Positions 12,830-23,313 of a DNA stretch of 64,000 nucleotides are shown here, in pieces (the first letter of the stretch is position 1; every line of letters starts with the position of its first letter). Source of the stretch: an uncultured cyanobacterium (GTDB taxonomy: Bacteria; Cyanobacteriota; Cyanobacteriia; Pseudanabaenales; Pseudanabaenaceae); assembly GCA_963703315.1 (NCBI GenBank), contig OY969811.1, positions 4,032,001-4,096,000 of the forward strand, read 5' to 3'. The notes under the pieces are model-generated. The model saw only the letters and a list, made by a program, of their open reading frames with translations. It had not been told where the DNA came from and made no database searches. The position numbers and the translations under genes are program-made.

Positions 12830-15800
12830 GTGGTTAGCCAAACACAGCAAGCAAATACAGGTTTTGATAGTTCTCTGGATGTCTCAAAGTATGAAGCGAA
12901 GACACAGGAAATTGCGAAGAAAATTTTAAGTGGAACCGAAAAAAGTTCTCTTTGGGCAAAACTATCGCAACTTAAGGATGAATTGCGCCTTGATGACAAG
13001 CTGATGGCTTGGACAATGGAAAATGAAGGCTTGCGAATTCAACTATTCAGATTAATTGATTGCTTGCCCGCTTTGCAGAGCAAAGCCGAAATCGCTAGCC
13101 ATATGCACGAATATTTGGCTAGTAATGCGGTGGATGTGCCAGCATTGCGTGGACTGCTCAATTTTAGTACCGACAATCCCAATTCCCTAACCGCAACGGC
13201 GGCAGCAACGGCGCTCTCGACTTCTGTCGCTACTCTCGCCAAGCGTTATATTTGTGGTGAGAACCTATCAGAAGCGACAAAATCCATTGAGAAACTTAGG
13301 CGCGATCGCTTTGGCTTTACGATGGACTTACTCGGTGAGGCGGTGATTAGCGAGGTAGAAGCAGGTGAATATCTCAATCGCTACATTGCAATGATGGAGG
13401 ATTTGTCTGGTAAAGCAAAGGCTTGGGGCTTAATCGATCAAATCGATAAAGCAGACGGTGAGGAATTGAAGCGGGTTCAGGTTTCCGTGAAATTGAGTGC
13501 TTTCTATTCTCAATTCGATCCTCTCGATCCTGTAAAAACGACAGAGAAAGTCAGCGAACCTGCACGGATTTTATTGCGTAAGGCGAAAGAATTAGGATGT
13601 GGCATCCATTTCGATATGGAGCAGTATGAGTTTAAGTCGCTCACATTACAGATTCTCAAACAAGTTTTAATAGAATCAGAATTTCGCGATCGCACTGACG
13701 TGGGAATTACGCTGCAAGGCTATTTGCGCGATAGTGAGCAGGATTTATTAGAACTAGTCGAATGGGCAAAGCAACGCGGTAAGCCTGTGACTGTGCGTCT
13801 CGTCAAAGGAGCCTATTGGGATCGGGAAACAATTCGTTCCTATCAGCAGGGTTGGGCTATTCCTGTATTCTCTGATAAAGTTTCCACCGATGCCAACTAT
13901 GAGCGCTTGATTCAGATTCTACTGGAAAACCATCAATATCTCTATGCGGCGATCGGTAGTCATAACGCGAGATCTTTAGCTAAGGCGATCGCCATCGTCC
14001 AAACTCTAAATATCCCCAGTCGCGCCTTTGAAGCCCAATGTCTCTATGGTATGGGTGACAAATTTGCCAAGGCGATCGCCGATATGGGGTATCGAGTGCG
14101 CGTGTACTGCCCCTTTGGTGATTTGATTCCTGGAATGTCTTACCTGATTCGCCGCCTGTTAGAGAATACCGCCAATAGTTCCTTTTTGAGAATTAGTGGC
14201 GAAGGTAGCGATATTAGTAAATTAATTGCTGCGCCTGTGATGACGGAACGGGATGCGAATTACAATGGCGCACCTGCTCTGAATATTTTTGATGGCTTTG
14301 TCAATTCTAGCGATCGCGACTATGCGATTAATGAAGAGAGAGAAGCCGCCCAAACTGCTTTACAACAGGTTCGCCGCCAACTTGGGAAAACCTATTTGCC
14401 AATCATCAATGGTCAAGCGGTAGAAACAGAAACCTATATCGAATCTGTTAATCCTGCCAACTCTTCGCAAGTAGTCGGCAAGATCGGGCTAGCCAGCATT
14501 GACCAAGCCGAAGCAGCCGTGAAGTCAGCAAAATCTGCCTTTGCATCATGGAAGAAACTCAGCGCTAAACAACGGGGTGATATTCTCCGCAAAGCTGCTG
14601 ACATCATGGAAGAGAAGCGCGAAGAATTAATTGCGTGGATTTGCTGGGAAGTTGCTAAACCGATCCGTGAAGGTGATGGCGAAGTTTCCGAAGCGATCGA
14701 TTTCTGCCGTTACTATGCCAAAGAAATGGAACGCCTTGAATCGGGTGTACAGCGCAATCTGCCGGGGGAAGACAATACTTACATCTATCAACCTCGCGGC
14801 GTAGTTGTGGTGATTTCGCCTTGGAACTTTCCCTTTGCGATCGCCTTGGGTATGAGTGTCGCTGCGATCGCCGCAGGTAACACCGTCATTCTCAAACCCG
14901 CCGAACAGTCCTCGGTAATTGGTGCAAAAATCGCTGAAGTTCTCCAAGCCGCAGGGTTACCCACAGGCGTATTCACCTATCTTCCTGCGAAAGGCTCGAC
15001 CGTTGGTTCACACTTAGTCAAACATCCCGATGTGCATCTGATTGCTTTCACAGGTTCTCAACAAGTCGGCTGCCAGATCGTCACCGAAGCCTCGATCCTG
15101 CGTCCTAAGCAAAAACACATGAAGCGCGTCATTGCGGAAATGGGCGGCAAAAATGGCATCATCATCGATGAGAGCGCTGACCTCGATCAAGCCGTCGTGG
15201 GCGTAATGAATTCTGCCTTTGGTTTCGCTGGTCAGAAATGTTCCGCTTGTTCGAGAGCGATCGTTCTTGCTCCTGTTTATGACAACTTCATGGAGCGATT
15301 GGTGGAAGCCACACGTTCCCTCATTGTCGGTGAAGCTCACCTTCCTGACACCAAACTCAGCGCTGTGATTGATGCTGCGGCTCAACGGAATATCCAGAAC
15401 TACATCGCTAAAGGTAAGGAAACTGCGACATTAGCCTATGAAGGAGAAGTTCCTAATCATGGTTTTTATGTCAGTCCCACTATTTTTGGTGATGTCGATC
15501 CTAATAGTGCGATCGCCCAAGAGGAAATTTTTGGACCTGTACTGGCGGTAATCAAGGCACAGAGTTTTGATGAGGCATTGGCGATCGCGAATGGTACAAA
15601 CTTCGCACTTACGGGCGGTTTATATTCGCGCACTCCTTCCCATATCGAACGCGCCTACCGCGAGTTTGAAGTGGGCAATCTCTACATCAATCGCGGCATC
15701 ACTGGCGCATTGGTAGATCGCCATCCCTTTGGTGGTTTCAAACTAAGCGGTATCGGTTCCAAAGCTGGCGGACGCGATTATCTATTGCAGTTCTTAGAGC

Positions 15801-15862
15801 CAAGGTCAATCACCGAAAACACACAGCGTCAAGGTTTTGCGCCTCTTGATGGGATTGAGTAA
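12830..15862 (+). CDS. putA: Bifunctional proline dehydrogenase / P5C dehydrogenase
   Basis: 'RLVKGAYWD', 'YLIRRLLENTAN', 'AEMGGKN', 'GQKCSA', 'EEIFGP'. Confidence 0.95.
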   Translation: MVSQTQQANTGFDSSLDVSKYEAKTQEIAKKILSGTEKSSLWAKLSQLKDELRLDDKLMAWTMENEGLRIQLFRLIDCLPALQSKAEIASHMHEYLASNAVDVPALRGLLNFSTDNPNSLTATAAATALSTSVATLAKRYICGENLSEATKSIEKLRRDRFGFTMDLLGEAVISEVEAGEYLNRYIAMMEDLSGKAKAWGLIDQIDKADGEELKRVQVSVKLSAFYSQFDPLDPVKTTEKVSEPARILLRKAKELGCGIHFDMEQYEFKSLTLQILKQVLIESEFRDRTDVGITLQGYLRDSEQDLLELVEWAKQRGKPVTVRLVKGAYWDRETIRSYQQGWAIPVFSDKVSTDANYERLIQILLENHQYLYAAIGSHNARSLAKAIAIVQTLNIPSRAFEAQCLYGMGDKFAKAIADMGYRVRVYCPFGDLIPGMSYLIRRLLENTANSSFLRISGEGSDISKLIAAPVMTERDANYNGAPALNIFDGFVNSSDRDYAINEEREAAQTALQQVRRQLGKTYLPIINGQAVETETYIESVNPANSSQVVGKIGLASIDQAEAAVKSAKSAFASWKKLSAKQRGDILRKAADIMEEKREELIAWICWEVAKPIREGDGEVSEAIDFCRYYAKEMERLESGVQRNLPGEDNTYIYQPRGVVVVISPWNFPFAIALGMSVAAIAAGNTVILKPAEQSSVIGAKIAEVLQAAGLPTGVFTYLPAKGSTVGSHLVKHPDVHLIAFTGSQQVGCQIVTEASILRPKQKHMKRVIAEMGGKNGIIIDESADLDQAVVGVMNSAFGFAGQKCSACSRAIVLAPVYDNFMERLVEATRSLIVGEAHLPDTKLSAVIDAAAQRNIQNYIAKGKETATLAYEGEVPNHGFYVSPTIFGDVDPNSAIAQEEIFGPVLAVIKAQSFDEALAIANGTNFALTGGLYSRTPSHIERAYREFEVGNLYINRGITGALVDRHPFGGFKLSGIGSKAGGRDYLLQFLEPRSITENTQRQGFAPLDGIE

Positions 15863-15956
15863 ACATAAAAAAGGGGGCTATATGCCCCTTCTTTTATGTG
15901 ATACTTTAGTAAGTATATTTACTTTCTACATTCTGCACAACATTGTTTTTTTTCAT

Positions 15957-16736
15957 ATGCCATATCCTACTCAATCCGAGACAGAAGAAGCACTAATTAG
16001 TTTGATATATTTCCATGGCGGCTCAGATTTTAGTATTAAATGTTCAGATACATATCGACCATTAGCCAACTATTTTCAATTGACTGAAAAGGAAAGACAA
16101 ATACTTAGGACATCTGAAGGAAATGAAAGGAAACGCAAATGGGACAGTATAGTGTGCTTTGCTAGAAGAAAACTTAAAGACTCTGGCTATCTTTCTTCTA
16201 ATTCCTCAAGAAGCATTTGGCAATTATCAAGTTCAGGCATTACTGCTGCTGAAAAGGTTTCGCTCAATTATAAGGAATTACAAAATGGTTTAAATACAAA
16301 TAGGTCAAAACAAATAATAGTTGAACCTAAATTACCTGATCAACTTCAACCTAGTTCTTCATCAGAGCCTGCTCAAAATACCTTTTCTGTAACTGAAGGT
16401 AGGGAAAAGCTGGCTATTCACAAGGAGCGTGAACGTAATCGTAAAATTATTGAGCAGAAGAAAAAAAGGATTTTAAGTGAAACAGGGAAATTAATTTGTG
16501 AGGTATGTGAATTTGATTTTGAAAGTCGATATGGTGATTTGGGAAATGGGTTCTGTGAGGTTCATCATAAAAATCCTCTAGCTAAAGTTGACAACGAAAC
16601 TCAAACAAGTTTGGAAGACTTGGCTATTGTATGCGCTAACTGTCATAGAATGATTCATCACAGTCAATGCATTCAACCTACTATGATGAGTATTGAGCAG
16701 CTTAAAAGCTTAATAGAAAATAAAAAAGTAGCTTAG
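15957..16736 (+). CDS. Mrr_N-like winged helix fused to McrA-type HNH endonuclease (candidate type IV restriction)
   Basis: N-terminal 'LANYFQLTEKER...W...ARRKLKDSGYL...IWQLS'; C-terminal 'EGR...HKERERN...CEVC.FDF...EVHH...CANCHRMIH'; ATG at 15957 preferred over the upstream overlap start. Confidence 0.8.
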   Translation: MPYPTQSETEEALISLIYFHGGSDFSIKCSDTYRPLANYFQLTEKERQILRTSEGNERKRKWDSIVCFARRKLKDSGYLSSNSSRSIWQLSSSGITAAEKVSLNYKELQNGLNTNRSKQIIVEPKLPDQLQPSSSSEPAQNTFSVTEGREKLAIHKERERNRKIIEQKKKRILSETGKLICEVCEFDFESRYGDLGNGFCEVHHKNPLAKVDNETQTSLEDLAIVCANCHRMIHHSQCIQPTMMSIEQLKSLIENKKVA

Positions 16737-16870
16737 GCAATGCATTAAGGATCACAAATAAACTTAACATTAACCTCAATCTTTCTATTAAAGACCAATC
16801 TAGTAAGGACAAGAAGCCCGTTGTTCTTTGGGATATACTTGATAAATGCTGTATCGCATCGCCTAAACCT

Positions 16871-17329
16871 ATGCCCCAGACTATTGAGCAAAAATCCACG
16901 CTATACGATCGCGATCTTAATTTGTGGTTAGAAGAGGCGATCGCAAAATTAAAAACTGGTGATTTTCAAAATCTAGATGTCGAAAACTTAATTGAGGAGT
17001 TAGAGGGTTTGGCGGGTAGAGATCGGCGCGAATTAGAGTCACGTTTGACTAGATTGATTGAACATATCCTCAAGCGTTGTTATGTCAACCTACCTGAATG
17101 TTATCGAGGTTGGGAGTTAACAATCATCGGACAAAGAAACGAGATTAAAAAAATCATTAAACAGTCTCCTAGCCTAAAACGCCACATAATCTCAGTGTTT
17201 GATGAATTGTTTAATGACGCACTAGAAATCGTACAAACAGAATATGAAAATACGATTTTTCCTGAGACATGGCAATTTACCTATGAGATTCACTTGCTGT
17301 TAAATACTAATTTTTGGAAAAAATCTTAA
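16871..17329 (+). CDS. DUF29-family protein
   Basis: 'LYDRDLNLWLEE...LDVENLIEELEGL...LIEHILK...W...I..QR......SPSL'. Confidence 0.9.
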   Translation: MPQTIEQKSTLYDRDLNLWLEEAIAKLKTGDFQNLDVENLIEELEGLAGRDRRELESRLTRLIEHILKRCYVNLPECYRGWELTIIGQRNEIKKIIKQSPSLKRHIISVFDELFNDALEIVQTEYENTIFPETWQFTYEIHLLLNTNFWKKS

Positions 17330-17496
17330 ACCTTGATGGATGATGTATCGCATCGCCTAAACCTATGCCCCAGACTATCGAGCAAAAAACAGGGCTATAC
17401 GATCGCGATCGCAATTTGTGGTTAGAAGAGGCGATCACCAAAAAAGCACTAAACTTAAATTTTAAAAAAAGCATTTGGAAAACTATTGATATTTGC

Positions 17497-18330
17497 ATGG
17501 ATAAACAACAAAGAATTGCTCAAGCTATAAAGGATGTCATATCTAAAATGATGGATCGGGTAATGGATCGTGTTCTAATTACTGATCCTTTTATCAAAGA
17601 AAATCATCGAGCAAACAAACCACTGTACGCAGCGTTAGTTCCTGATGAAATTTTTAAAGGTTCACATTTTGAGAGAAGATTTGTAACTCCATTTGGTCTT
17701 GTATGGGAAAAGTTAGCTCAAGTTGTTGCCCTAGAAGCTTATGGCAATTGCCAAATGGGGTATACAATTAGTGGTACAGTTGGGCAAGAGAGTCTGAGAA
17801 GAATTCAAGAAGTATTAAATAAATTAGAACATAGCAAAGGAAAAAACAAAGTCAAACCTAATTGGAATGAAGAATTACAATATATTCAAGAAGGCGGTGG
17901 TAACCAGATTCCAGTAAGCGTAGTTTGTGATATCTTTATTCAGAACGAAGAAAATGGAAAGCGGTATGCCTTTGAGCTTAAAGCTCCATTACCAAATAGT
18001 GATCAAACAAAAGTAAGCAAAGAGAAGCTATTTAAACTTCTGGCAATGGAACCCAAGTTAGTTGATTACGCATACTTTGCCTTGCCATACAACCCTTATG
18101 GCAAAAAAGAAAACTATAAATGGGACTTTCCGATGCGATGGTTCAATATGCACAAAGATGAATCTGTATTAATAGGCGATGAATTTTGGGATCTGATTGG
18201 AGGGGAAGGCACTTACAACAATTTTATTCAGGAAGTCAATTCATTAGGAAAAGATTACAGAGAACGCATCTATCGTGAATTCTTAGGAATAGAACCACCT
18301 CCAGATTTTGACGAGTATTTGTTGAAGTAG
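17497..18330 (+). CDS. Type II restriction endonuclease, TdeIII/HgiEI-like family
   Basis: 'FERRFVTPFG..WEKLA', PD-(D/E)xK core 'CDIFI...AFELKAPLPNSDQ', 'ALPYNPYG', 'IGDEFWDLIGG'; adjacent to a C5 MTase; ORF is also open from the repeat ATG at 17365. Confidence 0.8.
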   Translation: MDKQQRIAQAIKDVISKMMDRVMDRVLITDPFIKENHRANKPLYAALVPDEIFKGSHFERRFVTPFGLVWEKLAQVVALEAYGNCQMGYTISGTVGQESLRRIQEVLNKLEHSKGKNKVKPNWNEELQYIQEGGGNQIPVSVVCDIFIQNEENGKRYAFELKAPLPNSDQTKVSKEKLFKLLAMEPKLVDYAYFALPYNPYGKKENYKWDFPMRWFNMHKDESVLIGDEFWDLIGGEGTYNNFIQEVNSLGKDYRERIYREFLGIEPPPDFDEYLLK

Positions 18331-18353
18331 AAAAATGTAAGAGGAGATATCAA

Positions 18354-19898
18354 ATGAATAACGCTAAATTTACCTTTATTGATCTTTTTGCTGGAATTGG
18401 CGGCTTTAAAATGGCATTAAGTAATAATGGTGGTCATTGCCTTGGATTTAGTGAAATAGATAAAGATGCAATAAATACATATTGTGACAACTTTCAAGTT
18501 GAATCGAGTTACAACTTAGGGGATATTACAAAAATAAAAGAGTTACCTGAACACGACTTATTAACTGCTGGAGTTCCTTGTCAAAGTTGGTCTATTGCGG
18601 GTAAAAATTTAGGTTTTGATGATGACAGAGGACAGTTATGGAATGACACAATTTACCTACTTCAACAATCTCAGCCCAAAGCCTTTATTTTTGAAAATGT
18701 GAAAGGCTTAGTTGATCCTCGCAATAAAAAAGCTTTATCATACATTTTAGAAAGAATTCAAAAAGCAGGATATTACGCTAATTACTTTGTGATTAACTCA
18801 TTTGATTATGGCGTACCACAAAATAGAATTCGCATATACATAATTGGTTTTAAAGAAAAGAAGTACTTTCAAAGATTTATACTACCTAAATGTATTGACA
18901 AGAAGCTAAAACTTGGCGACATACTAGGTATTGAGCCAAAAAACTCAACAGACAAAAGAATTATGCAAATGGACTTATTTGGAAATGTTGTCGAATCAAA
19001 AACAATGAGTCTTTCAAATACAAATGGGTTTAATGACTATTTTTTATTTAATGATCTTAGGAATGGTCATACAACAATCCATTCATGGGATATTAGTGAA
19101 ACCACTCAGCGACAAAAAGATATTTGTTTGTTATTGCTTAAAAATAGACGTAAAAGCACCTATGGAGAACTTGATGGCAACCCGTTGTCATTAGAACACT
19201 TTCAAAGCCTAGACTCATCCATTAATCAAGATGAAATTAATCAACTGATTGAATTAGAAATCTTAAAGTCCGAAGAGTACAGTTTTACTATAAAAGACTA
19301 TAGTATTAGCAATTTAACAAAAGAAGAAGAAATACTACTTTCATTTGCAAACGATCGCAAAATTATTATTGATAATTTAAATACTCAAAGAATATTTAAA
19401 ACTGAGAAAATATCCATTGAAAAAACTATTGAATCTCTTAAGGGAAAAAGAATTATTGAATGTCATGAGGTTCGTTATGATTTTAAAAATACTAAGATAA
19501 GCACAGGATTATTTGGAGTGAATCGCATATTTTTACCAAGTTCTGACATTTTCCCAACTTTGGTGGCAAGTGACACAAATGATTTCATAACTTTAAAAAC
19601 TATAGAAGCCTCAAATCATGAGGAATTTAAAAATAAATTTATCCAAGAAATTTATAAGCCTAAAGCATTTAGAAAGATTACTAAAAGTGAAGCTTGTTTA
19701 ATACAGGGATTCCCTAAAGATTTTAAGTTGCCAGAATCAAGAGCAAAATGGATGAAGTTAATCGGTAATAGCGTTTCAGTTCCTGTAATCGATAAGTTAT
19801 GCAAAGCAATTATTGAAACTGGTGTATTTGAAAATAGGCAAACTATTAGCTTGGACAGTATCAATGATGAGAAATTAGTTATTTCTCTTTGTGCTTAG
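18354..19898 (+). CDS. DNA (cytosine-5) methyltransferase, cognate of the upstream REase
   Basis: Motif I 'DLFAGIGG', IV 'GVPCQSWS', VI 'ENVKGL', VIII 'PQNRIR', IX-X 'QGFP...GNSV'. Confidence 0.95.
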   Translation: MNNAKFTFIDLFAGIGGFKMALSNNGGHCLGFSEIDKDAINTYCDNFQVESSYNLGDITKIKELPEHDLLTAGVPCQSWSIAGKNLGFDDDRGQLWNDTIYLLQQSQPKAFIFENVKGLVDPRNKKALSYILERIQKAGYYANYFVINSFDYGVPQNRIRIYIIGFKEKKYFQRFILPKCIDKKLKLGDILGIEPKNSTDKRIMQMDLFGNVVESKTMSLSNTNGFNDYFLFNDLRNGHTTIHSWDISETTQRQKDICLLLLKNRRKSTYGELDGNPLSLEHFQSLDSSINQDEINQLIELEILKSEEYSFTIKDYSISNLTKEEEILLSFANDRKIIIDNLNTQRIFKTEKISIEKTIESLKGKRIIECHEVRYDFKNTKISTGLFGVNRIFLPSSDIFPTLVASDTNDFITLKTIEASNHEEFKNKFIQEIYKPKAFRKITKSEACLIQGFPKDFKLPESRAKWMKLIGNSVSVPVIDKLCKAIIETGVFENRQTISLDSINDEKLVISLCA

Positions 19899-19927
19899 CA
19901 TCTTTTTAAATAAGTAGACAAAAAATT

Positions 19928-19993
19928 GTGATCAAAACTCAAATTTTAGAAGCAATCAAACAAATGCCGAATAGCGATCGCCTAAACCTATGA
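19928..19993 (+). pseudogene. 5' fragment of a small antitoxin-like gene truncated at HIP1
   Basis: GTG-IKTQILEAIKQMPNSDR(LNL*); the gene-like sequence runs into GCGATCGC at 19974-19981, where repeat copy 3 begins. Confidence 0.4.
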
Positions 19994-20313
19994 CTAAACC
20001 TATTGAACAAAAAATAAAATCACTCGCTCGTGCAGACGTTATGCAAACGCTCTCCATGCATCGCCATGAACTAAAAAGACTCGGCGTAAAATCTTTGCGA
20101 CTATTTGGCTCTGTCGCAAGAGATGAGGCAAGACCTGATAGCGATATTGATTTCTTAGTTGAGTTTGTTAACGATCCCTCATTCTTTGAACTATTTGAAG
20201 TGCAATATTTTCTTGAAGATTTATTCCATTGTAAAATTGATTTAGGAATGGAAGAATCATTAAAAGAACATTTAAGAGAGCCAGTACTCAAGGATGTGAT
20301 CCATGCCCTCTAG
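19990..20313 (+). CDS. MNT nucleotidyltransferase antitoxin
   Basis: 'LFGSVARDEARPDSDIDFLVEF'. Confidence 0.9.
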   Translation: MTKPIEQKIKSLARADVMQTLSMHRHELKRLGVKSLRLFGSVARDEARPDSDIDFLVEFVNDPSFFELFEVQYFLEDLFHCKIDLGMEESLKEHLREPVLKDVIHAL

Positions 20314-20644
20314 AGACTGGCAACTAAGAATCGCAGATATTCTGCAAGCTGTTCAAGATATTGAGCAATTCACACAGGAGATGACCTTTGAAGAATTTAG
20401 CAATAACAAGATGGTTGTCCAATCCGTACTTTACAACTTCGTGATTATTGGTGAAGCATCCGCTAACATACCTGATGAAATCCAATCACTCGATCCCACA
20501 ATTCCTTGGCGTAAAATGAGCGATATGCGTAACGTGATGGCTCATGAGTATTTTCAAGTAAATCTTTCTATCGTTTGGCAAACAATTCACAGAAATTTAC
20601 CACCAATTTTACCAAAACTGGAAAATCTCATAGAGAATTCATGA
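20303..20644 (+). CDS. DUF86/HEPN RNase toxin
   Basis: 'IIGEA', 'IPWRKMSDMRNVMAHEYF' (R-x4-H); overlaps MNT. Confidence 0.9.
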   Translation: MPSRDWQLRIADILQAVQDIEQFTQEMTFEEFSNNKMVVQSVLYNFVIIGEASANIPDEIQSLDPTIPWRKMSDMRNVMAHEYFQVNLSIVWQTIHRNLPPILPKLENLIENS

Positions 20645-20868
20645 TGCTAAACCTATACCCCAGACAATTGATCAAAAAACAACGCTGTGCGATCGCGATC
20701 GCAATTTGTGGTTAGGAGAAGCGAATCTCTGGGACAAGAGCGCTATATGCTCCTTACATTTTGACACTTTAACGTACCAAAAATGATACAATAATAAAAT
20801 CAAATTTAAGTACTCACTTATTTACCACTTGATTTCTATCTTTTGTGAGCTTCTGCTGTAATTTTCCT

Positions 20869-21225
20869 ATGAGCAATATTAAGAGAATTAAAGCAAGCTT
20901 TTTCAAAACCGAATCTGGTAAAGAACCTGTTAGGGATTGGCTGATGACTTTATCGAAAGAAGATAGACAAAAAATAGGAGAAGATATTAAAACAATTGAG
21001 TTTGGATTTCCTATCGGAATGCCTACCTGTCGCCCTATGGGTAAAGGATTGTATGAGGTGCGTACTAACCTTGAGAATACGATTACCAGAGTTTTGTTTT
21101 GTGTGGAAGGAGAGCAAATGATTCTTTTACACGGGTTTACTAAGAAAACGCAAAAAACACCTAAGGAAGATTTGAATTTAGCCATCAAGCGACAAACTGA
21201 GTTTAAGAACAAAATTAGGAGTTAA
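20869..21225 (+). CDS. RelE/ParE-family (Gp49-like) toxin
   Basis: 'GKEPVRDWL', 'GLYEVR', 'ILLHGFTKKTQKTP..DLNLA..R'. Confidence 0.85.
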   Translation: MSNIKRIKASFFKTESGKEPVRDWLMTLSKEDRQKIGEDIKTIEFGFPIGMPTCRPMGKGLYEVRTNLENTITRVLFCVEGEQMILLHGFTKKTQKTPKEDLNLAIKRQTEFKNKIRS

Positions 21226-21227
21226 CC

Positions 21228-21521
21228 ATGTCTAACAATTGTCATTTAGGTTCTGCTTTTGATGACTTTCTAGAACAGGAAGGAATTTTAAATGAAGTAA
21301 CAGAAATTGCGCTGAAGCGGGTCTTGGCTTGGCAAGTTGAGCAAGCAATGAAGGAACGGGGCTTAACTAAGTCCAAGATGGCTAAGTCTATGCAAACTAG
21401 CCGTGCGGCGCTAGATAGACTTCTTGATCCTGAGTATGATTCTGTAACTCTACGAACTTTAGATAAGGCAGCTAGAGCAGTGGGTAAAAGAATTAAGATA
21501 GATTTGGTTGATGTTATCTAA
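21228..21521 (+). CDS. XRE/HTH antitoxin
   Basis: 'GSAFDDFLEQEG', 'TKSKMAKSMQTSRAALDRLLDP...VTL.TL.KAA'; candidate operator GTACCA-N4-TGATAC at about 20774-20789 upstream of the toxin. Confidence 0.85.
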   Translation: MSNNCHLGSAFDDFLEQEGILNEVTEIALKRVLAWQVEQAMKERGLTKSKMAKSMQTSRAALDRLLDPEYDSVTLRTLDKAARAVGKRIKIDLVDVI

Positions 21522-21816
21522 ATGATTCGATTCCCTTAATAAAACCCATGCCCCATACTATTGAGCAAAAAATAACCCTGTGCGATCGCGATCGCAGTTT
21601 GTGGTTATCGAAGAGGCGATCGCGAAGTTAAAAGCTGGTGATTTTCAAAATCTCGATGTCGAAAACGAGGTAGGTCAATTAAAAATTCTCAACGATCGCA
21701 CCCGAGCCTCAGCAAACTAGCAAATAACTTTTTCCTAACCACAGAGTTGTCACTTACCAATATTTCATGTAAGAATTCATGGGATATTTTGTGCTTGTGA
21801 CAAGGGATTAGGAATT

Positions 21817-23313
21817 ATGCGTTTAGGACAATTGCTCGCGTTAGCAGGGTATCAAAATTCTCAGCCTGAATTAGATGGGCTAGAAGTAAAGCGTGTAATT
21901 ACCGATTCGCGGGCTTGCCAAGATGGGGACTTGTTTATCGGCATGACGGGTACACAGGTAGATGGCGGCAAATTTGCACCACAGGCGATCGCACAGGGCG
22001 CGATCGCGGCGATTATTTCTCATGAGGCTTATGCAAATTTGACGATTAAGGACAAAGCGATCGCCGTTGATGATGTGGTTGTCGCTTGCAGCAAATTGGC
22101 GACCGCATTTTATGACTACCCTGCTCAAAAGCTAAAACTGGTGGGCGTGACGGGGACTAATGGTAAAACCACCACCACCCACTTGATCGAGTTTTTATTG
22201 CAAACTCAGTATGCAGCCGCTTTGTTTGGGACTTTGTATACACGCTGGGCAGGCTATTCCAAAACTGCGAGTCATACCACCCCCTTTGCGGTGGACTTAC
22301 AGGCACAACTAGCTGAGGCGATCGCGGCGGGGTGCGATGTGGGCTTGATGGAGGTTAGCTCCCATGCTTTAGACCAACGGCGTGTGTTAGGTTGCCCCTT
22401 TGAGGTGGCAGTATTTACCAACTTAACCCAAGACCATTTGGACTACCACAAAGACCTAGAGTCTTATTTTCAGGCAAAGGCTTTGCTGTTTAGCGATACC
22501 TATTTGCAAGGTCGTGCCATTATTAATTTGGATGATCCCTTTGGACAGAGACTAGTACAGAGCCTTACGGACAAACCAGTTTGGACTTACAGCATTAGCA
22601 ATTCTCAAGCCGATTTTTATACCGAGAATTTGACCTATTTACCTAATGGCGCAACAGGTATTTTACACACGCCACAGGGGGGGATCACTTTTAATTCACC
22701 TTTAGTCGGTCGCTTTAATGTCGAGAATATCTTGGCAGCGATCGCTACGGCTTTGCATCTAGGGCTGAGCTTGGAAGAAGTAATTAGCCGTTTACCACAA
22801 TTTAAGAGCGTGCCTGGGCGTGTAGAACGGGTGCAGGTTAGCGATGATCAAGATGTCACGGTGGTGGTGGACTACGCCCATACTCCTGACAGTCTCGAAA
22901 ATTTACTCAAGGCAATGCGCCCCTTTACCCAACGTGACTTAATTTGTGTATTTGGCTGTGGCGGCGATCGCGATCGCACTAAGCGTCCGCTTATGGGTGG
23001 GATCACCGCTAGACTTGCTGATCGCGTTTATGTCACTTCTGATAATCCCCGTACCGAAGATCCCCAACGCATCCTTGATGATGTCGTGGTGGGCGTAATG
23101 GCGGATATTGGCGACAAACCCTTGACTATTGAGGGCGATCGCCGTAAATGTATTCAAACTGCTATTGCTGAAGCTCAATCAGGGGATACAATCCTGATTG
23201 CGGGGAAAGGACATGAAGACTATCAAATTATCGGACATGAGAAAATCCATTTTGATGATCGAGAGGAGGCGCATTTAGCTTTAATCAATCGTCAAAGTTC
23301 AAATCTTCGTTAG
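21817..23313 (+). CDS. murE: UDP-MurNAc-tripeptide synthetase
   Basis: 'GVTGTNGKTT', 'MEVSSH', 'NLTQDHLDYH', 'DYAHTPD', 'DNPRTE', 'GKGHE'. Confidence 0.95.
   Translation: MRLGQLLALAGYQNSQPELDGLEVKRVITDSRACQDGDLFIGMTGTQVDGGKFAPQAIAQGAIAAIISHEAYANLTIKDKAIAVDDVVVACSKLATAFYDYPAQKLKLVGVTGTNGKTTTTHLIEFLLQTQYAAALFGTLYTRWAGYSKTASHTTPFAVDLQAQLAEAIAAGCDVGLMEVSSHALDQRRVLGCPFEVAVFTNLTQDHLDYHKDLESYFQAKALLFSDTYLQGRAIINLDDPFGQRLVQSLTDKPVWTYSISNSQADFYTENLTYLPNGATGILHTPQGGITFNSPLVGRFNVENILAAIATALHLGLSLEEVISRLPQFKSVPGRVERVQVSDDQDVTVVVDYAHTPDSLENLLKAMRPFTQRDLICVFGCGGDRDRTKRPLMGGITARLADRVYVTSDNPRTEDPQRILDDVVVGVMADIGDKPLTIEGDRRKCIQTAIAEAQSGDTILIAGKGHEDYQIIGHEKIHFDDREEAHLALINRQSSNLR

Follow-up and report, generated by a model that had tools for sequence, protein, structure and literature searches.

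Defence and toxin-antitoxin cassettes between HIP1-ended short repeats downstream of putA in a cyanobacterial genus

We analysed a 64,000-nucleotide stretch (the window) from an uncultured cyanobacterium of the Pseudanabaenaceae (assembly GCA_963703315.1, contig OY969811.1, positions 4,032,001 to 4,096,000), in which an array of defence and toxin-antitoxin (TA) genes follows putA. A sequence-only reading had described an integron-like series of cassettes between putA and murE, punctuated by five degenerate copies of the 5' end of a DUF29 gene, and had proposed this 5' end as a landing pad through which cassettes are gained and lost. The observation is confirmed and the array is wider than that reading saw, while its interpretation is partly supported. 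Across the genus we observed repeats at the cassette edges, shuffled cassette order, transfer of at least one restriction-modification (R-M) block, and repeat ends centred on the highly iterated palindrome HIP1.

Repeats and cassettes at the locus

The host genome (G000) is complete (4.57 Mb) and HIP1-rich, with 8231 GCGATCGC at a HIP1 density of 1.8 per kb. The island at 15863-21700 has a GC content of 0.349 versus 0.42 for the genome, and the closest named homologues of its DUF29 protein are from Pseudanabaena. All five repeat copies are in register (whole-genome BLAST, E 1e-36 to 7e-6) and the modules follow in the order claimed (Table 1). The ATG>ATA change in copy 4 (20655-20657) and the 2-bp insertion in copy 5 (21608-21609) are both present in the sequence. 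All open reading frames (ORFs) of the island are on the plus strand (Pfam/PADLOC), as had been stated; as a general rule this fails, with a PD-(D/E)xK cassette on the minus strand in 6 arrays of other genomes.

Table 1. Features from putA to murE, in window coordinates.
Feature	Position	Strand	Basis or remark
putA	12830..15862	+	Pfam; conserved left anchor; in relatives, some cassettes are followed by a copy of its last 19-60 nt
Copy 0, degenerate leader: terminator-like hairpin 15867-15894 plus -10-like box	15863..15905	+	missed by the sequence-only reading
Cassette 1: Mrr_N + HNH nuclease, type IV methyl-directed restriction endonuclease (REase)-like	15957..16736	+	Pfam/PADLOC
Copy 1: right arm of putA terminator, TATACT box 16834-16839, DUF29 codons 1-24, perfect HIP1 16937-16944	16814..16944	+	
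Intact DUF29 gene, all-alpha, 3fcn-like predicted fold	16871..17329	+	Pfam and model
Copy 2: collapsed DUF29 paralogue, 5' end joined to own 3' end at HIP1-like site 17431-17438	17332..17480	+	
Cassette 2: type II REase, TdeIII family (RE_TdeIII)	17497..18330	+	Pfam/PADLOC
Cassette 2: C5 cytosine methyltransferase	18354..19898	+	Pfam/PADLOC
Second repeat R2: decayed 5' end of small antitoxin-like gene; ends at HIP1 19974-19981	19919..19981	+	
Copy 3: short leader copy fused to R2	19962..20013	+	
Cassette 3: MNT 19990-20313 + HepT-like HEPN 20303-20644	19990..20644	+	Pfam/PADLOC
Copy 4: ATG>ATA; ends in left half of HIP1	20647..20724	+	
Cassette 4: RelE/Gp49-like toxin 20869-21225 + HTH antitoxin 21228-21521	20869..21521	+	Pfam
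Copy 5: DUF29 nt -5 to +117, 2-bp insertion, extends beyond HIP1 (21616)	21542..21666	+	
Rearrangement joint to murE upstream region	21667..21816	.	homology to one relative's murE leader begins at CGATC, 21693
Mur ligase (murE)	21817..23313	+	Pfam; right neighbour in this genome only

Some repeat copies run into the gene behind them. The ATG of copy 2 (17365) is in frame with the REase ORF, and copy 3 provides the MNT gene with an in-frame start codon and about its first 8 codons. Copy 2 itself derives from a DUF29 paralogue that has lost the stretch between HIP1 and a GATC close to its 3' end; in two relatives the intact gene still precedes the same R-M pair. The ATG>ATA change of copy 4 is common to all 6 copies behind MNT-HepT in the set used for comparing single-nucleotide polymorphisms (SNPs) of the repeat. 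The hairpin and TATACT region is covered by 45 long copies that reach -43 or further, with TATACT in 39 of the 45; most other copies begin at -5 to -27 and have neither element. A promoter scan found 19 promoters versus 19.3 expected, and the TATACT box is absent from its list.

Whole-genome BLAST recovered some 25 DUF29-like loci in G000, with the leader repeat restricted to the island, and no comparable array was found in 18 other DUF29 neighbourhoods (19 positions) of this genome. At G000:C1:3233572-3235377, another DUF29 gene is interrupted by an element resembling an insertion sequence (IS) and is followed by a short DUF29 5' fragment and then radC.

The array across the genus

Of putA and murE, only the first marks the array. 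Although putA was matched in 46 and murE in 47 of the 48 genus genomes, the adjacent pair occurs only in G000, and the putA-murE interval therefore fails as a conserved frame: the two genes are non-neighbours in every relative examined. Downstream of putA, at least one repeat copy is present in 40 of 45 loci (G000 included) and at least two in 29, with a maximum of 7; three of the five loci that carry no repeat are shorter than 2.6 kb. The right flank of the arrays is variable (lpxA-like in 7 loci, many other genes elsewhere), and the repeat was absent from 20 of 20 murE-upstream loci of relatives, 5 of which are under 3.1 kb. The conserved anchor is putA alone, genus-wide. Among the close relatives, nearly every genome has its own neighbour gene beside the murE upstream region, also within the five closest (L001-L005); this region is a rearrangement hotspot in its own right.

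Elsewhere in the family, 20 genomes of other genera had putA, and the 17 putA-downstream loci retrieved from them, several of them short, contained no array. Two loci distant from putA are of a different kind. One (L095:8105-10029, genome G052) is a 1.9-kb array piece of 84-94% identity on a HIP1-poor contig, containing the last bases of putA, the terminator, DUF29, a reverse transcriptase (RT) remnant, MNT-HepT and a DUF29 5' part; it represents either a cross-genus transfer or a binning artefact. At the other (L090:3514-4595, genome G062) a RelE-HTH homologue lies between HIP1-bearing DUF29 fragments, and the cassette habit may thus extend beyond the genus.

We then defined the cargo pool by clustering 539 array ORFs. 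The commonest cassettes are RelE-HTH (15 arrays), the TdeIII R-M pair (12), TacA-GNAT (10) and MNT-HepT (9), followed by MazF, DUF433-DUF5615 and the PD-(D/E)xK gene (6 each) and by AbrB-PIN, ParE-like and Mrr-HNH cassettes (4 each). Further cargo comprises AAA ATPases, AbiP2 reverse transcriptase, type ISP, HindVP and type I R-M systems and UzuA. Several recurrent cargo families gave no Pfam or PADLOC match and are candidate new anti-phage systems. Such families of 200-450 amino acids are c12 (L050, L038, L040, L057, L067), c19-c26 (L031, L040, L047, L059) and c29 (L026, L029, L070). IS elements and an RT gene have inserted into cassettes of some arrays (L036:2682-3740; L039, RT on the minus strand; L057:514-5891).

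These cassettes occur in many arrangements. Among 43 non-empty arrays we found 39 distinct order strings, and 22 of 38 co-occurring cassette pairs were found in both orders (15 of 25 when the multicopy DUF29 is excluded). Since so many pairs occur in both orders, loss from a single ancestral order cannot explain the arrays. A single cassette type, with the same leader and the same downstream repeat variant, had up to 7 different neighbours, again in both orders. When arrays were aligned to each other, 237 of 411 homology ends fell in R1/R2 fragments, which make up 9% of the array length, and 39 in intact DUF29 genes (8%). Across the genus, cassettes are seen to be gained and lost as units at the repeats, as the sequence-only reading had envisaged, and also to be reordered there. 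Its additional notion that each gain duplicates the pad is not required, since a donor can bring its own pad.

Such an array could in principle be a passive hotspot, in which tandem DUF29 genes decay, insertions occur independently, whole blocks downstream of putA are swapped and the repeats are mere scars. Arrays with two or three intact DUF29 genes in tandem are indeed common, copy 2 is demonstrably a collapsed paralogue, and no event was caught in progress. Against this, the same cassettes with the same leaders and downstream repeat variants change neighbours and order, and homology ends are concentrated in the repeats. Moreover, the right flank is not conserved, so that whole-block replacement would lack a second arm. 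We consider this explanation unlikely. Decayed DUF29 paralogues had been named as a finding that would speak against a cassette array; copy 2 is one, but the fragment ends coincide with cargo boundaries. In the tandem DUF29 paralogues of the arrays (L021, L023, L027, L029, L055) the first 55-70 residues are near constant, whereas there are several distinct C-terminal halves. This pattern suggests that the 5' part is swapped or homogenised among tandem paralogues.

The R-M block gave an indication of movement between hosts. It was matched in 14 of 47 other genus genomes and in none of 23 from other genera; eleven of the matches are 90-97% identical and lie within repeat arrays, while three (80-82%) are located elsewhere. 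Between G000 and genome G001 its synonymous difference is 0.05-0.07, compared with 0.28 for putA, although AT-rich cargo compresses synonymous change and putA contributed 180 codons only. The synonymous distance of the block is uncorrelated with the putA distance (Spearman 0.09, -0.12), which points to recent transfer. We take the TdeIII recognition site to be GGNCC. This word is depleted in G000 (0.13), but CCNGG is likewise depleted (0.18), and the depletion is therefore uninformative on REase activity.

The arrays also appear polar. Non-TA modules hold the first recurrent place in 19 of 23 arrays, but only 14 of the 50 places after it (Fisher p 3e-5), in a count where kin are not independent and singleton modules were left out.

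HIP1 at the repeat ends

The ends of the remnants fall on HIP1, a feature that the sequence-only reading had missed. The function of HIP1 has been debated for three decades (PMC5861425, PMC13756078). With intact genes and contig ends set aside, 107 truncated copies remained, 83 of which ended at DUF29 nt 66-79. Grouping the junctions by their downstream sequence gave 35 independent types, 18 of which end in this window (binomial p 4e-8 against a 110-nt uniform null). It is the site of the sole perfect HIP1 in 34 of 37 intact DUF29 genes. That is, copy ends cluster within 14 nt over 18 junction types, whereas starts range from -56 to +13, and the sequence beyond the repeat end is cassette-specific. 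For all five recurrent junction types with a known un-joined form, the partner carries a GAT, GATC, GATCG or GCGAT microhomology.

Other repeats behave alike. Among 33 truncated copies of R2, 13 end at or just past its own HIP1 (nt 48-57) and 17 at nt 70. Genomes G024, G034 and G033 draw on the same cargo pool, with an unrelated 80-nt repeat, bounded by HIP1 or GATC-core sites, between the cassettes; the leader of TacA-GNAT occurs joined at HIP1 to one or other of two unrelated repeats. The proposal that the pad is specific to the DUF29 5' end is thus not borne out: the same role is played by an antitoxin 5' end (R2), by the 3' end of putA and by an unrelated repeat with HIP1 bounds. The 80-nt-repeat arrays lie at L088:2163-6494, L089:5582-9170 and L067:6033-7211; in L088, AbrB-PIN is duplicated around R-M, and a 47-nt core of the repeat is dispersed in many genomes.

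Outside the island, we scanned G000 for local direct repeats, using a crude filter that scored one pair per locus. CGATC or GATCG stood at an end in 22 of 36 low-GC loci, compared with 5 of 16 higher-GC repeat-flanked loci and with 12% and 24% in two nulls. Of 20 loci picked mostly for HIP1-like ends, of whose 99 ORFs 66 were scanned, 16 contain a gene of a named TA or defence family, and a 43-nt repeat pair surrounds a GmrSD gene at 974138-976178. The DUF29 array therefore appears as the richest case of a general habit. About 22 small TA or defence modules of G000:C1 lie between locus-specific short direct repeats, often with HIP1-like ends (e.g. L121, L125, L128-L131, L133); their families are BrnTA, YoeB, ParE, HicA, MazF, YafQ, TumE, HEPN-MNT and GmrSD.

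Candidate mechanism and known systems

Neither an integrase nor a transposase ORF was found within the island (ORF list and Pfam), and the repeat is not attC-like, in agreement with the earlier statement that the island has no recognisable integrase, transposase or attC-like site. No IntI of G000 scored over the cut-off (best TIGR02249 E 1.9e-7, below cut-off). No resolvase was found either; the genome has a single Xer-like gene, at a distance of 2.3 Mb, and one weak tyrosine-recombinase match far off. A site-specific recombinase acting in trans (IntI, Xer-like or a hairpin-recognising enzyme) might still use the repeat, or a hairpin of its two CGATCG palindromes. In favour of this, IntI is over the cut-off in 23 of 48 genus genomes (not at the arrays), orphan attC-like sites occur in G000 outside the island (G000:C1:653039-653123 and 2746920-2747909), the two palindromes can pair into a stem with its base near the break, and the cassette order is integron-like and polar. 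The breaks themselves lie about 14 nt downstream of the repeat's GTT. However, the repeat folds no better than shuffled sequences (z -0.17 to -1.9), and the attC sites of 6 integron loci of the genus, which with their classic attC served as positive control, gave no BLAST match to the arrays. Rich arrays also occur in genomes lacking a full IntI (G000, G005, G017, G042), the joints are ragged (nt 66-79) and mostly half-sites, and unrelated repeats work equally as joints. Taken together, this makes a recombinase in trans improbable. Classic attC arrays of relatives are located at L081:2666-8104 and L084:421-8693.

The DUF29 protein was considered as a recombinase or nuclease and this was rejected: an alignment-based model (mean predicted local distance difference test score, pLDDT, 86.5) matched 3fcn only (Z 11.2, root-mean-square deviation 5.7, 132 aligned), while a single-sequence model was unusable (pLDDT 47.6). 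Searches with DUF29 gave no PDB sequence match and DUF29 clusters only in the Atlas; nothing suggests that DUF29 catalyses cassette exchange. A structured-RNA reading of the repeat was also dismissed (no significant fold, Rfam match at chance level), as was a phage or plasmid vector, for which IMG/VR (exact 29-mer) and GenBank phages gave no match and plasmids one weak DUF29 match.

We consider it likely that the genus maintains a putA-anchored array of exchangeable defence and TA cassettes which is run by host homologous recombination through HIP1-derived short repeats. Foreign genes would be captured at the putA 3' end, terminator and DUF29 leader, with another copy of that stretch behind them, and would often use the promoter-like box and start codon of the leader. 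Spare DUF29 copies would then collapse by microhomology deletions with the perfect HIP1 as left end, leaving remnants of 75-130 bp; the pattern of ends is observed, and from it we infer initiation at HIP1. Remnants with one to three HIP1/CGATCG sites would next provide short arms of homology, through which RecA-type exchange would insert, delete or reorder whole cassettes; the partner would most likely be transformed DNA anchored in putA or in a shared cassette. The outcome is seen in the arrays, and this route may have led to it. TA modules would stay distal and newer defence genes would tend toward the putA-proximal position. Such a process would require no dedicated recombinase, and any short HIP1-bearing repeat could be a joint. 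ComEC and DprA have intact reading frames in G000, so that at the gene level the host may be naturally competent. In PCC 7002, integration increased up to 7-fold when the homology arms carried HIP1, and >100-fold when it was methylated, independently of AddAB (10.1101/2024.09.10.611283).

Several observations weigh against this mechanism. Many arrays are interrupted by contig ends, and related genomes are not independent. Outside the repeats, in 83% of the length, lie 135 of the 411 homology ends, many of which trace to one IS insertion and one deletion counted against many partners. Cargo distances of HTH, GNAT and HepT do follow the putA distance (correlation 0.39-0.58), so that much of the inheritance is vertical. 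The relatives compared are different species (putA 82-92.5% identical), and no close strain pair displays a single event. Neither an excision circle nor a deletion allele was seen in the assembled contigs of four sequencing runs. One of these, X1, is near-identical to G000 and may be the source sample; it showed no deletion between copies, in contigs that drop rare variants. Joints in X2 and X6 (16941>19919, 21524>17359) were considered as excision alleles, but match the arrangements of other strains and were left uncounted. Arms of 75 bp are short for RecA. Repeat SNPs track the upstream and downstream cassettes only weakly, so that the crossover position is not resolved. As to HIP1, 17 of the 35 junction types end away from it, including copies 3 and 5 of the window; the upstream CGATCG at nt 36, present in 28 of 37 intact genes, is no break hotspot (1 of 35 types); and joints mostly keep half of HIP1, with all 8 bases in 22 of 85.

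The lack of a hotspot at the upstream CGATCG would suit a reading in which homologous shuffling is right and HIP1 incidental: remnants might end near +70 since shorter arms would be of no use, or HIP1-like words might be made or kept at joints afterwards. New HIP1s do arise in decayed copies (a perfect one at nt 36 in 45 of 85 fragments), and the genome is dense in HIP1 anyway. This seems unlikely to us, given the narrow window of ends against the broad range of starts, the ends of R2 and R4 at HIP1 and the excess of HIP1-like ends over both nulls at low-GC repeat-flanked loci of G000.

In how it operates, the array resembles one known phage system and, in part, one of Neisseria. In the hyperplastic regions of T4-type phages, promoter-early stem-loop (PeSL) units of terminator plus promoter are repeated between variable genes and shuffle modules by homologous exchange (PMC2839356, PMC4122927). 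As with PeSL, shuffling is integrase-free and takes place at short repeats, the long copies combine a hairpin with a -10-like box and a start codon, and indel or replacement ends map to the repeats. In contrast to PeSL, the array is chromosomal, its repeat is mostly a DUF29 5' coding remnant with HIP1-defined ends, and its cargo is of the defence and TA type; mini-circles and promoter activity have been demonstrated in the phages, whereas our array is known from assembled sequence. Minimal mobile elements of Neisseria likewise place variable cargo at a housekeeping locus, between two conserved genes of a competent host, by homologous recombination (PMC3787668). They share with the array the fixed housekeeping locus, the lack of a mobility gene and, at the gene level, the competence of the host, but here putA is the only conserved flank, and with repeats inside the array cassettes can be stacked and reordered one by one. 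Earlier HIP1-associated recombination comprises site-specific plasmid recombination in PCC 7002, excision in PCC 7942 and SDR5 insertion (PMC4390886, PMC5861425). HIP1 or its GATC core at joints and the aid of HIP1 in arms are common to both; the earlier cases are laboratory constructs or single elements, whereas here the joints are natural and belong to a multi-cassette array found across a genus.

Sedentary chromosomal integrons and clusters of attC sites lacking integrases (CALINs) are organised in a similar way, with ordered, mostly co-oriented defence and TA cassettes that are shuffled, apparently polar from an anchored end and preceded by a shared promoter-like box. Their attC sites are imperfect hairpins (RYYYAAC...GTTRRRY) between cassettes. 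The putA array, in contrast, has no IntI at the locus, its repeats are not attC, its joints are imprecise and HIP1-centred, and several unrelated repeats serve. The array is not an integron or CALIN; cassette reordering makes it work like one, which is not membership. No description of such an array or of HIP1-jointed cassette arrays was found in a literature search lacking most subscription papers, including the HIP1 papers of the 1990s. It returned one unrelated paper on DUF29 and none for Pseudanabaena together with integron and attC.

More speculatively, a HIP1-directed host nicking or strand-exchange activity might make short direct repeats around captured genes and exchange them, amounting to a distributed integron analogue. 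We hold this to be possible but doubtful. If true, the putA array would be the largest site, the 20 or more HIP1-bounded TA and defence cassettes elsewhere would be smaller ones, and HIP1 would gain a concrete role in the turnover of anti-phage defence. For the three-decade-old question of its function, the locus supplies dozens of natural recombination joints on HIP1 and makes that question testable by experiment. A bacterium can stack and reorder defence systems in an integron-like manner without an integrase, and integron finders would miss such arrays.

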